Origin: a virus
Lineage: Duplodnaviria; Heunggongvirae; Uroviricota; Caudoviricetes
Length of the DNA: 37,462 nucleotides
Strand: one strand, 5' to 3'
IMG/VR virus record: IMGVR_UViG_2778261530_000007
How positions within the stretch are numbered: the stretch's first letter is position 1; each line of letters opens with the position of its first letter. Below are positions 2,790-37,462 of this stretch, piece by piece. A program made the translations under genes and the position numbers. A model generated the notes under the pieces. It searched no databases. It saw only the letters and a list, made by a program, of their open reading frames with translations, and was not told the DNA's origin.

Positions 2790-3140
2790 ATGAAACTACA
2801 GCGCAATTCTTCACAGCCGCGCTTCCGCAACGGTGCGGAACGCCACGCTAACCGTTTCGCTACCAGTGCATCACGTAGCAACTCTCGCTACAGCCTGAGC
2901 GAAACACACGCAACGCCGGATGGCTACCCAGTAAAACAAATCGGCGAGCATACCTGGCTGATTGAGAAAGCTGGAATTGTGGTCCACAAATGCCCACGCA
3001 ATCCGTTTACCGGAAACCGCATTTTTGCATTGAGCAACGGCGACAATCAGTTCGGACAGGATTTTACATTGTACGAAGCGCTACGCACGGTTGACCGCTT
3101 AATTGCAGGACGTAGTTTTCAGCATCCACGGGGGAATTAA
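2790..3140 (+). CDS. Hypothetical early protein (116 aa)
   Basis: ORF in the rightward early operon; no recognisable motif. Confidence 0.5.
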   Translation: MKLQRNSSQPRFRNGAERHANRFATSASRSNSRYSLSETHATPDGYPVKQIGEHTWLIEKAGIVVHKCPRNPFTGNRIFALSNGDNQFGQDFTLYEALRTVDRLIAGRSFQHPRGN

Positions 3141-3143
3141 CCA

Positions 3144-6113: not shown

Positions 6114-6250
6114 AGCAGTATCAGGATTTTTTAGTATGCCGTTCTCACAAAAAAACCGCTTGCCATGCCGCAATCAGTCAGGTTACATTTCCGCTGCACC
6201 TCATAAAACGGGTGCCGGGATTGGAACCCCGCTGACAACCAAAGCGCACA

Positions 6251-6270
6251 ACCGCGCCAGCGGTTTTTTT
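6251..6270 (+). terminator. Rho-independent terminator (ACCGCGCCAGCGGT followed by T7)
   Basis: GC stem followed directly by TTTTTTT. Confidence 0.55.
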
Positions 6271-6449
6271 GTGCGTACCGTATCGCCACGTCGTTTTCGC
6301 ACACGAATTATGGTGGGGCGTATGGGGCCGACTTCGGTCGGGCCGGGTTCTTTGGTTGCCGGTAGTTCCAACCCTGTACGTCTCACCACCCCGAGCTTGG
6401 AACCTCTGGATGGTGAGTTTTCAAAACTTACAACCAAAGAGGCCACACC

Positions 6450-33518: not shown

Positions 33519-33675
33519 AGCTTCAGCCCCTTGTATCCGTTAAATGATTCGGCAACAATCATCACCCACCACGCGCGTAATCTCACCCCTGCGCCGTTCT
33601 CCCGACCCAGCGACAACAAAAAGCAGTAACCCCCTCCGCACGCACATGCGACCATGCCGCACAGGGAGGGAACAG

Positions 33676-34785
33676 ATGACCGACACCACCATGCAATTGC
33701 TCAGTCAGGGCACAGACCCCGTGAAAATGCCGGATTTTGATATTCTCGCGGAGGGTAAAACGCTGTCAGGCGTGGCAGAGCGCCTGATGAGCCTGTCACT
33801 GACCGACAACCGGGGATTTGAGGCGGACCAGCTCACCATCACGCTGGATGATGCGGATGGTCAGTTGCAGCTACCGCCACGGGGCGCGCGTCTGACGGTT
33901 CTCATTGGCTGGAAAGGGGAACCGCTGACAGAAAAAGGCACTTACATTGTTGATGAAATCGCTCACGAAGGACCGCCGGACAGGCTGACTGTTTCAGCCA
34001 GAAGCGCAGATTTTCGGGATGAATTTAACGTTAAACGTGAGGTGTCCTGGCATGATGTGACCCTTGAGCGTGTGGTATCCGCCATCGCTCATCGGTATAG
34101 TCTGAAACCACAAATCAGCGAAATGCTGATGGATATCGAAATCGACCACGCCGACCAGACCGAAGAAAGCGACATGTCCTTCCTTACGCGCATGGCGGAA
34201 ATGCTGGGCGCAATCACCACGGTAAAAAGCGGCAATCTGTTATTCATCATGCCAGGTGGTGGCGTGAACGCACAGGGCCAGCCGTTGCCCTCGTTCGCCA
34301 TTACACGCAGCAGCGGCGATCGCCATCAGTTCCGTATTGCTGACCGCGAGGCGTATACGGGGGTACGCGCCTACTGGCTTGATCTTAATTACGGGAAGAA
34401 GAAAAAAGTCAGCGTGAAACGCCGCAAACCGCCAAAACCCAAAAAGGAGAAAAGCAGCAGCCGTGAAGGTGATTATATGGAAGGCGCGGAAGGCAATGTG
34501 TTTGTGTTACGCAAGACTTATCAGAACGAGCAGGCAGCAAGACGCGCAGCGGCGGCAAAGTGGCAGCAGCTACAACGCGGAGCCGCATCATTCTCCATCA
34601 CGCTGGCGCGTGGACGTGCAGAACTCTACCCCGAAATGCATGGCACAGTAACAGGCTTTAAAAGCGAGATTAATAATCAGGACTGGATTATTGCAAAAGC
34701 CGAGCACACCATTGATAACAGCGGCTTTACCACACAGCTTGAGCTTGAAGCAAAAATCCCGGAATGGATAGCAGAAACAGAATGA
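33676..34785 (+). CDS. D: Tail / late control protein D (P2 gpD); start chosen at the ATG with a GGGAGGG RBS
   Basis: Similarity to P2 D as recalled (SLTDNRGFEADQL, ITRS.GDRH, WxxLQRG, SGFTTxLELE). Confidence 0.85.
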   Translation: MTDTTMQLLSQGTDPVKMPDFDILAEGKTLSGVAERLMSLSLTDNRGFEADQLTITLDDADGQLQLPPRGARLTVLIGWKGEPLTEKGTYIVDEIAHEGPPDRLTVSARSADFRDEFNVKREVSWHDVTLERVVSAIAHRYSLKPQISEMLMDIEIDHADQTEESDMSFLTRMAEMLGAITTVKSGNLLFIMPGGGVNAQGQPLPSFAITRSSGDRHQFRIADREAYTGVRAYWLDLNYGKKKKVSVKRRKPPKPKKEKSSSREGDYMEGAEGNVFVLRKTYQNEQAARRAAAAKWQQLQRGAASFSITLARGRAELYPEMHGTVTGFKSEINNQDWIIAKAEHTIDNSGFTTQLELEAKIPEWIAETE

Positions 34786-35219
34786 CCCGAATTAATTCAA
34801 TACGACAGTTGACTCTGACATCAGATATTCCGGACAGGGTCGTATTTTTGCCTCTGGACAAAGCAACTGATTATCTGAATCAGCTCAATAGCGCGCAGCG
34901 AATACTTCTGGAATCTGCTATCAGTGACCGACAGGCCATAGGCAAAGGAACGCTTTTTGCAATCAACGAAGGAAGAATAAAAAAAATTTGCAAGGAAGTC
35001 ATAAAACACAATATGCGAGTCAAGGAAGCAATAAACATTGCTATGCAACCGGACAATCTTGCTCGCTTGTTCCCAGACAATCCTGAACAAAGAGCCCGTT
35101 ACAGGAGTTTATTAATTTGTTTTGGTCGGGCTATTGCCCAAAGTGAATTTATTGCCCGCGATATAATTAATGCGATGGAGCAATGCACTGCCTCATTCAC
35201 CGAACATCTGGACCAATAG
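34782..35219 (+). CDS. Hypothetical protein (145 aa) in an AT-rich moron between D and ogr
   Basis: ORF with ATGA overlap to the D stop; AT-rich composition; no recognisable motif. Confidence 0.5.
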   Translation: MTRINSIRQLTLTSDIPDRVVFLPLDKATDYLNQLNSAQRILLESAISDRQAIGKGTLFAINEGRIKKICKEVIKHNMRVKEAINIAMQPDNLARLFPDNPEQRARYRSLLICFGRAIAQSEFIARDIINAMEQCTASFTEHLDQ

Positions 35220-35275: not shown

Positions 35276-35536
35276 ATGTTCCGTTGTCCGCTTTGTGGCG
35301 CATCTGCCCGTATCCGCACCAGTCGTCCGGAAAATGATTCAAACACCGTGCGGCAAAAGTATTACCAGTGTAACAACCTGGAATGCGGCGTATGCTTCTC
35401 AACACTGGAAGCTTTCCATAAATTCACATCGAAACACGCCTCCGGCGTTCACTCTTCAGAAGGTATCCCGTGGCATGAGCTGCCAGCTTCGCACAGGGGA
35501 AACAATCAGATGAGCTTGCCTTTACCTCAGAATTAA
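35276..35536 (+). CDS. ogr: Ogr/Delta-family zinc-finger late-gene transcriptional activator
   Basis: MFRCPLCGASARIRTSR ... YYQCNNLECGVCF matches the Ogr C4 zinc-finger pattern. Confidence 0.85.
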   Translation: MFRCPLCGASARIRTSRPENDSNTVRQKYYQCNNLECGVCFSTLEAFHKFTSKHASGVHSSEGIPWHELPASHRGNNQMSLPLPQN

Positions 35537-35596
35537 CGGGCAGAATTGCCGGATTAACAAAAAAGCGATAGATTACACGCGGGTGCCTTTCGGCTG

Positions 35597-35809
35597 ATGG
35601 TCGGAGGGAATACCCGAAGGCCGGATGTGGAAAGGCCCCGGAAAACATTTCTGTTTAACCGAGGCCCTGACCATACAACCTTCGCAAGTCGTAGGTTAGC
35701 GCCTCTCCAACAAAGGAGCAAGCGCTATGTCGCAAAAATCGCTTACGGCCATCACGTTCTGCGTGACGGCAATCCTCATCATCTGGATGCTGCACGGTTC
35801 GCTGTGTGA
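35597..35809 (+). CDS. mok: Mok-like overlapping reading frame of a hok/mok/sok-type locus
   Basis: 70-aa ORF overlapping hok in another frame, as in characterised hok/sok loci. Confidence 0.45.
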   Translation: MVGGNTRRPDVERPRKTFLFNRGPDHTTFASRRLAPLQQRSKRYVAKIAYGHHVLRDGNPHHLDAARFAV

Positions 35810-35867
35810 AATACGGATGAGCTTCTGGGGAGCGGAGTTTGCGGCGTTCTTACAGTGTAAGCAGTAA
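35727..35867 (+). CDS. hok: Hok/Gef-family type I toxin (46 aa membrane peptide)
   Basis: Hand-translated MSQKSLTAITFCVTAILIIWMLHGSLCEIRMSFWGAEFAAFLQCKQ: N-terminal TM helix then the family-typical LCEIR and AAF motifs; GGAG RBS. Confidence 0.75.
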   Translation: MSQKSLTAITFCVTAILIIWMLHGSLCEIRMSFWGAEFAAFLQCKQ

Positions 35868-35959
35868 GGAAACCGCGACGGGGGAGCAATCCCCCGTCAA
35901 TCGGTTGCCAGGGTAAAGGTCGAAAAGGCACCCTATTTCCAGTTGACGTGAACAACAAG

Positions 35960-35991
35960 CCCGCAGCGTAAAAACTGCGGGTTTTCTTTTT
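35960..35991 (+). terminator. Rho-independent terminator (CCCGCAG-loop-CTGCGGG followed by a T-run) after the hok locus
   Basis: Hairpin plus TTTTCTTTTT. Confidence 0.55.
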
Positions 35992-36022
35992 GGTTCCCTC
36001 ACTCATGAGGACACCAAAAACA

Positions 36023-36053
36023 AAGCCCATAGCATAGAAGCTGTGGGCTTTTT
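36023..36053 (+). terminator. Second terminator-like hairpin (AGCCCATAGC...GCTGTGGGCT followed by TTTTT)
   Basis: Near-perfect inverted repeat with a T-run. Confidence 0.45.
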
Positions 36054-36127
36054 GCATTCAAAGATGGACGTTATATGGACACTTAAAAATAAAATCCATT
36101 TATTTTCAAATGATTAAACCTTTACTT

Positions 36128-36150
36128 AAAGCGCCCGCAGGCGCTTTTTA
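36128..36150. terminator. Bidirectional terminator downstream of serS (AAAGCGCC-CGCA-GGCGCTTTTT)
   Basis: GC stem flanked by an A-run and a T-run, 20 bp past the serS stop. Confidence 0.55.
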
Positions 36151-36169
36151 GATTCAGAAAAATTGGGTA

Positions 36170-37462
<1,293 letters not shown>

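Follow-up and report, generated by a model that had tools for sequence, protein, structure and literature searches.

Our analysis of a 37,462-nt stretch of viral DNA (IMG/VR record IMGVR_UViG_2778261530_000007; hereafter the window) indicates that a P2-like (P88-like) prophage located in the serS terminator very likely carries, at its right end, a hok/sok-type type I toxin-antitoxin module as accessory cargo, a 'moron'. The module is a known kind of element and an ordinary one, already annotated (Hok/Gef in RefSeq; PHROG 251, moron). Its research value lies solely in a modest question, namely the purifying selection acting on relatives that are without any mok-like ORF, but it also serves as a worked example of a type I toxin module that is recognisable from RNA end-pairing alone.

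The predicted toxin gene, hok (35727..35867, plus strand), encodes a peptide of 46 aa, and the assignment of this ORF to the Hok/Gef family in the initial annotation is well founded. The peptide scores 29.9 bits against Pfam HOK_GEF (PF01848), whose gathering score is 22, and 80.6 bits (E = 1.3e-22) against PHROG 251 ("MokW-like host killing", category moron), and it is identical to WP_000078916.1, a 'Hok/Gef family protein' that is the RefSeq CDS product in strain 720632. Against the NCBIfam models HokA (34 bits, cutoff 89) and Hok (21.6 bits, cutoff 73) it scores below the cutoffs, and it is therefore not an equivalog of HokA-E. Three hallmarks of Hok/Gef proteins are present in the peptide: a length of ~50 aa, a hydrophobic helix near the N-terminus, and the conserved C..T, LCE and E. 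According to a recent survey, M1, C16, T18, L30, C31, E32 and E41 are conserved in >80% of Hok peptides (bioRxiv 10.1101/2025.08.07.668861); all seven residues are found in our peptide, as M1, C12, T14, L26, C27, E28 and E37, with the same spacing as in the published logo. Within the alignment of the subfamily, G24, C27, E28, A36 and E37 do not vary. Of the 51 distinct loci that we gathered, 44 have an intact hok ORF, and the median pairwise dN/dS is 0.23. Judged from these sequences, hok is under purifying selection, an indirect indication at most that the peptide is toxic. Comparison of the window with one locus that has no mok-like ORF (L057) gave a dN of 0 and a dS of 0.24 for hok.

The relatives were taken from complete E. 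coli genomes, phage genomes, IMG/VR contigs, Salmonella and Klebsiella contigs and plasmids, with the viral contigs searched by means of a Hok family alignment, and the 51 distinct loci range from 99% down to ~66% identity. The peptides of the 80 IMG/VR loci were nearly all identical, and many of these loci end 3 nt past the stop codon; diversity came from the other contigs and the plasmids. A scan of genome contigs yielded 6 loci, among which the labels Planococcaceae, Vagococcus and Xanthomonas look like contaminated assemblies, and their taxonomy was not relied on. Classical plasmid hok loci are too diverged to be found by blastn with the window DNA. The module is present in 1555 of 5426 complete E. 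coli genomes. One DNA copy, 81.5% identical, adjoins lom in Stx2 phages, and other copies lie at the end of another Salmonella prophage, in chromosomal islets together with other toxin-antitoxin genes, and on a few plasmids. In the survey cited above, which is a preprint, 6290 Hok homologs were counted in IMG/VR and hok was four-fold enriched in prophages (bioRxiv 10.1101/2025.08.07.668861).

One end of the window (position 1) is the stop codon of a phage integrase gene on the minus strand, and the other is the start of serS (36170..37462), which is also on the minus strand. Upstream of the hok locus are a gpD-like tail gene (33544..34785) and then, as its immediate neighbour, ogr (35276..35536, plus strand; Pfam Ogr_Delta, 52.4 bits). 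On the other side, the phage DNA ends at the attR core (36128..36147), a 20-mer, AAAGCGCCCGCAGGCGCTTT, that is at the same time the serS terminator hairpin. A second copy of this 20-mer adjoins dmsA, beyond the integrase, in the closely related lysogen 720632 (attL), and K-12 has one copy, inside its 238-bp serS-dmsA spacer (attB), where hok is absent. Because AAAGCGCCCGCAGGCGCTTT occurs at both attR and attL of the lysogen and only once in K-12, all the DNA to the left of 36128 is phage DNA, with the end of the hok terminator 137 bp inside the phage end; the analysis of hok has thus also placed the edge of the prophage at the serS terminator. The same module is found at 93-95% DNA identity in the genomes of the free phages P88, Chuche, P884B11, PhiR44_2, 500465-2 and Shae_phiSM. 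In P88 (gp52) and other Xuanwuvirus/Peduoviridae it occupies the same place after ogr; collinearity between P88 and the window stops just past the hok terminator, P88 having an extra gene between this terminator and attP as well as another integration site. In a divergent Salmonella P2-like prophage at ihfA/pheT, hok likewise comes between ogr and the host DNA (gpU, gpD, ogr, hok, host); the Hok of that prophage is only 61% identical. The initial annotation had regarded the locus as possible phage cargo between ogr and the host junction, a view that the presence of hok downstream of serS in prophage-free genomes would have overturned. The hok-free attB of K-12, the att core and the free phages with the module all agree with that view: the module is phage cargo inside an att-bounded P2-like (Peduoviridae) genome, and a host origin is excluded. 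No paper on the ogr-hok-att arrangement came up in a literature search that combined hok with ogr and P2-like phages, but the arrangement is visible in deposited phage annotations.

By analogy with R1, a halt in Sok synthesis should lead the module to kill the cell, and a role in prophage retention or phage exclusion would be plausible. It is rather doubtful that it instead serves the lytic cycle, contributing to lysis or release upon induction. The model for such a role is hokW-sokW of the Stx2 prophage Sp5, which like our locus is a prophage-borne hok-family type I module of the phage moron class (PMC8621323), and whose deletion halves Sp5 release after mitomycin C (PMC8621323); the 81.5%-identical copy beside lom in Stx2 phages also speaks for it. 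But the carrier of the module in the window is a P2-like myovirus, in which the module sits between ogr and att, close to the latter and outside the lysis cassette. The characterised HokW is 51 aa long, not 46 aa, and therefore hokW may be a different locus. Moreover, plasmids and chromosomal islets carry the module as well, as would fit a general role in addiction or abortive infection, and R1 hok/sok reduces T4 plating according to work cited in PMC8621323.

The hok promoter is placed, from sequence reading and conservation, at 35546..35574 (plus strand), with a putative -35 TTGCCG (35546-51), a 17-nt spacer and a putative -10 TAGATT (35569-74). In relatives with unrelated upstream DNA the -10 (TAGATT, TAGAAT or TACATT) keeps a constant spacing to the GGGTGCC that follows, and its counterpart in the hokC alignment is the -10 TATAAT. 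Transcription is predicted to start ~7 nt downstream of the -10. The Rfam model RF01794 matches 35581-35737 over its whole length (positions 1-157; E = 8.4e-08), with 41.8 bits at the hok leader against a gathering score of 59. Though named "sok", RF01794 matches the hok-sense strand and therefore models the hok mRNA leader. An intrinsic terminator (35957..35991, plus strand) comprises 35957-35984 and a subsequent run of T. The Rfam start, the terminator and the fold together suggest a full-length hok mRNA of ~411 nt (35581..35991, plus strand), both ends being predicted. The leader of K-12 hokC(gef)/mokC/sokC aligns with that of the window base for base across the -10, the GGGTGC 5' end, AAAGCCCCG, CCGAGGCC and the AAGGAG SD, whereas HokC and the 46-aa peptide are only 30% identical over 33 aa; hokC is chromosomal and adjoins IS186, whereas the module in the window is phage-borne.

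Opposite the hok leader, a Sok-like antisense RNA of ~55-62 nt is predicted on the minus strand (35625..35686; hairpin 35632-35668). The annotated K-12 SokC maps by alignment to 35679->35625, and in its fold the predicted RNA has a 5' tail and then a hairpin of 15 bp (-27.5 kcal/mol, z = -4.3), the stem of which is conserved and includes two pairs with compensatory changes. Sequence reading gives a candidate promoter for this RNA (35693..35721, minus strand), with -35 TTGCTC (35721->35716), a 17-nt spacer and -10 TAACCT (35698->35693), which overlaps the hok SD region and presumably has the same layout as the R1 Sok promoter. Its -10, read as AGGTTA (AGGATA in two), is nearly invariant in 18 sequences, a conservation that is inseparable from that of the overlapping hok SD hairpin/dcb. 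A consensus promoter scan of 35400-36200 called no promoter, for either hok or Sok, both of which are weak by consensus. The case for a Sok-like antisense unit opposite the hok leader, as read from sequence, is thus good but indirect. The initial annotation proposed looking for a Sok-like promoter opposite the mok start; a promoter-like pair is found opposite the leader, but the Sok-complementary region falls within the 70-aa frame discussed below and not over its start.

The two ends of the predicted hok mRNA are complementary. We used the R1 hok element definitions of PMC9841398 in describing the pairing. A perfect inverted repeat of 10 nt (GGGTGCCTTT, 35581-35590, and AAAGGCACCC, 35924-35933) extends with one bulged A to 15 pairs, between 35581-35595 and 35918-35933. 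The first segment is the tac element at the mRNA 5' end (35581..35595, plus strand) and the second is its 3' partner, the fbi element (35918..35933, plus strand). Such complementarity had already been pointed out at 35583..35596 and 35925..35937; the pairing is real and conserved, but these coordinates are too high, by 2 and 4 nt, respectively. In the MFE fold of 35581..35991 (-173.6 kcal/mol, z = -5.9), the tac/fbi helix closes the molecule. When the first 18 nt are matched to the 3' UTR, the most favourable duplex (-23 to -31 kcal/mol) lies 45-54 nt past the stop codon; this holds for 45 of 47 homologs, including some that are ~67% identical overall. The inner part of the helix varies by locus (CGGCUG/CAGCCG, CGGC/GUCG, CGAC/GUCG and CGACGC/GCGAUCG). 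The outer 9 bp are nearly invariant and therefore provide no covariation evidence of their own, but the inner pairs covary. On an alignment of 18 sequences, pairing in the full-length fold reaches 88.4%, compared to 39-45% when the 3' partners are slid; in this alignment 29 pairs change on both sides, and the covariation score was reached by none of 500 shuffles.

Pairing with fbi is not the only arrangement available to the 5' end. In the predicted fold of the RNA truncated at its 3' end (35581..35912), the 5' end re-pairs with GAAAGGCCCC at 35630-39, a ucb-like box (35630..35639, plus strand) that is also part of an inverted repeat (I3). This truncated fold is as well supported as the full-length one: it is 89.2% paired across the alignment, and one pair of the tac/ucb stem (35/78) is U-A in 11 of 17 sequences and C-G in the other 6, being unpaired in none. 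A third, local arrangement is a metastable 5' hairpin that the nascent transcript is predicted to form (35586..35608, plus strand; 35586-95 with 35599-608). It comprises 9-10 bp with -11 to -16 kcal/mol and was found by predicted folding of all 11 representatives despite their differing sequences. The tac element shows coupled compensatory changes on both partner sides (fbi and ucb). Because the full-length, truncated and local-hairpin folds are each conserved, the same 5' nucleotides have three conserved partners, and this scheme matches the tac/metastable, tac/fbi and tac/ucb arrangement of R1 hok (PMC9841398). A stem-loop in the 3' UTR (35871..35906, plus strand; inverted repeat I4) is, on the R1 model, the likely stop point of 3' processing; its helix (helix 17) is 97% paired and has compensatory changes in 5 of 9 pairs.

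The resemblance to hok/mok/sok (parB) of R1 is accordingly broad. Both specify a small Hok/Gef membrane peptide (52 aa in R1, 46 aa in the window) from an mRNA of ~400 nt, with the tac/fbi end-pairing, the alternative tac/ucb stem and the metastable 5' hairpin. In both, the hok SD is buried and fbi is preceded by a 3' stem-loop. The R1 antisense RNA of ~60 nt, with a promoter that overlaps the hok SD region, has a predicted counterpart in the window. The R1 locus is plasmid-borne, whereas that of the window is phage-borne, and unlike R1 the window has no start codon after its SD-like GAGGC and a mok ORF that is not conserved. By computation, a weak promoter precedes the predicted ~411-nt hok mRNA, in which tac can pair with the neighbouring segment, with fbi (closed) or, once the 3' end has been removed, with ucb. 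If the R1 model applies, the full-length mRNA would be stable and silent, and slow 3' trimming to the stem-loop at 35871-35906 would remove fbi and cause refolding. The refolded RNA would then either be bound by the unstable Sok and destroyed or, should Sok synthesis have ended, be translated into the membrane toxin Hok. Sok synthesis might end after prophage loss, upon the shut-off of transcription by an infecting phage, or upon induction.

The step in this scheme by which hok translation would be activated is less straightforward. The hok SD is sequestered in a hairpin of the MFE fold (35697..35727, plus strand; GGAG 35715-18 with CUCC 35705-08) that is 91% paired across homologs (helix 8). 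In partition function calculations the unpaired probability of the hok SD was ~0-0.16 in all modelled states for 12 of 13 representatives, the exception being L010 (0.27-0.44). At equilibrium the hok SD is thus paired in full-length, truncated and Sok-bound RNA, and the activating step is therefore not explained by folding. We considered direct exposure of the hok SD by 3' truncation and rejected it, since the rise is only marginal (from 0 to 0.02-0.16) and is reversed by Sok binding. In R1, hok translation requires mok, whose ATG is located ~9 nt after its own SD and 58 nt before hok (PMC9841398), and the preprint survey notes that mok is hard to predict (bioRxiv 10.1101/2025.08.07.668861).

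The initial annotation described the locus as a complete hok/mok/sok system, taking a 70-aa frame (35597..35809, plus strand) as mok-like. This ORF exists, but its identification as mok is not supported, since the frame is not conserved and its product has no family match in Pfam, PHROGs or NCBIfam; the description 'complete' is likewise unsupported. The counterpart of the mok SD, GAGGC (35661..35665, plus strand), aligns to GaGGC of the Rfam model and to hokC; its pairing partner is ucb when the full-length RNA is folded, and GCCUC (35701-05) when the truncated RNA is folded. This SD-like sequence is conserved, but it is not followed by a start codon (ATG, GTG or TTG). Whereas mokC of K-12 is an in-frame, ATG-initiated extension of hokC, the position of its ATG is occupied in the window by ATA (35673-75), followed by an in-frame TAG (35697-99) that does not vary among the 18 aligned sequences. 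We also considered a conserved short upstream ORF that would terminate at this TAG and rejected it, because the candidate starts (ATG 35625 in the window; a GTG-ATA-GGT mini-ORF in relatives) are not conserved.

That the 70-aa ORF, or a frame beginning at the internal GTG 35627, is nevertheless a working mok that opens the hok SD, and the locus hence a complete hok/mok/sok system, is unlikely. The 70-aa ORF is intact in the window and in several relatives (L001, L011, L020, L022, L030, L075 and L078), it has the same relative frame (+2) as R1 mok, for which a start 58 nt before hok is given (PMC9841398), GTG 35627 has a GAAGG box 6 nt upstream, and the hok SD is predicted to be sequestered without help. 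However, the frame is interrupted or without a start codon in UTI89 (96.8% identity) and in the free phage P88, where it contains a stop. More generally, 16 of the 31 distinct leaders, those of UTI89 and P88 among them, lack a read-through ORF that extends as far as the hok SD, and in the remaining 15 the starts of such an ORF are inconsistent (-130, -103, -100, -46 and -28). The ATG at 35597 is 16 nt from the mRNA 5' end, within the tac helices and with no clear SD. The Sok-complementary region is inside the ORF. In the loop of the Sok-target hairpin, the relatives differ at one codon, some having TTC or TTG and others a stop (TAA or TAG). Finally, purifying selection on Hok persists in the relatives that have no mok. 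Most likely, then, the 70-aa frame is an unselected open frame, and hok translation in this subfamily is probably independent of a canonical mok. We tentatively suggest, as a reading with somewhat less than an even chance of being right, that the widespread phage-borne Hok subfamily of 46 aa has dispensed with mok and that its translation is controlled only by Sok and by the three-way refolding of the RNA, which would make it a mechanistic variant of the hok/mok/sok circuit known from textbooks. In that case gating may involve, for example, GAGGC acting as an anti-anti-SD against GCCUC 35701-05, or a non-AUG leader ending at the TAG at 35697. The clear purifying selection on the mok-less relatives calls into question whether the mok requirement of R1 holds family-wide.

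The absence of a conserved mok and the pairing of the SD in all modelled states could also be taken to mean that the locus is a decayed, silent hok relic, in which mok was lost, the SD is buried, the toxin is not expressed and the locus hitch-hikes with the phage. Several chromosomal hok loci of K-12 are reportedly inactive (Pedersen and Gerdes, 1999). We consider decay very unlikely here, however, given that 44 of the 51 unique copies preserve the 46-codon ORF, with the median dN/dS given above, that conservation, with compensatory changes, extends to the promoters, every RNA helix and the Sok unit, and that many phage lineages and 1555 of 5426 complete E. coli genomes retain the module. It is scarcely credible that the complementarity between the two mRNA ends is a chance inverted repeat with no role: an exact 10-mer inverted repeat is expected ~0.1 times in 461 nt by our own estimate, but the two arms of this one fall precisely on the predicted 5' end of the mRNA and 50 nt past the stop codon, and chance is ruled out by the MFE fold that the repeat closes, the conservation of the duplex position in 45 of 47 homologs and the covariation of the inner pairs.

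The Rfam model RF01794 matches the window at 35581-35737 on the plus strand, which is the hok-sense strand, and the model consensus ends at the hok AUG; therefore, although it is named 'sok antitoxin', RF01794 describes the hok mRNA leader rather than an antisense RNA. Three of the related hok-bearing loci that we collected for comparison (L015, L017 and L021), together with about 45 other prophage records from IMG/VR, terminate exactly 3 nt past the hok stop codon. These boundaries follow gene calls, and the part of the hok mRNA that carries fbi (the 3' UTR partner of the mRNA 5' end) and the terminator is cut off. The 3' regulatory elements of hok would thus escape surveys built on such records.

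Some Salmonella chromosomal islets hold this 46-aa hok module as a tandem pair, with the copies about 490 bp apart (locus positions 3001-3141 and 3491-3631 in L091, and 3001-3141 and 3495-3635 in L092), with a YafO toxin gene adjoining. This enterobacterial hok is also encoded, with 72-98% peptide identity, on genome contigs (L005, L006 and L009) that bear the labels Planococcaceae, Vagococcus and Xanthomonas pisi; these are probably contaminated or misassigned assemblies.

At the right end of the prophage, the att core (36128-36147) is the intrinsic terminator hairpin of serS. The core is duplicated by integration, and the terminator is therefore retained by serS. A second terminator-like hairpin (AAAGCCCATAGCATAGAAGCTGTGGGCTTTTT, 36024-36053) is located in the phage arm, past the hok terminator and before attR. 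The free P2-like phage P88, in contrast, has a 243-bp minus-strand gene in place of the stretch that holds this hairpin.

Upstream of hok, the junction between the gpD-like tail gene and ogr carries an insertion of about 430 bp (34786-35215, within the region 34764-35219), which was found in none of the approximately 100 related loci fetched. The 151-aa ORF inside it had no match in Pfam, PHROG or NCBIfam, and only 9 matching protein clusters were found in a set of 5.8 billion proteins; some of these clusters bear the NCBI label 'SufA' but have no recorded Pfam domain. The ORF looks like a rare orphan moron at a second cargo hot spot. Because the same junction in a related prophage, L011 (IMGVR_UViG_2737471845_000016), holds another, different insert, about 1.9 kb long (between locus positions 578 and 2506), the gpD-ogr junction appears to be a site of variable cargo.

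Two adjacent Rfam matches were observed on the plus strand in the prophage's early region, the Hfq-binding RNA isrK (6196-6270) and the C4 antisense RNA (6306-6393), each above its gathering score (69.5 and 84.4 bits, respectively).
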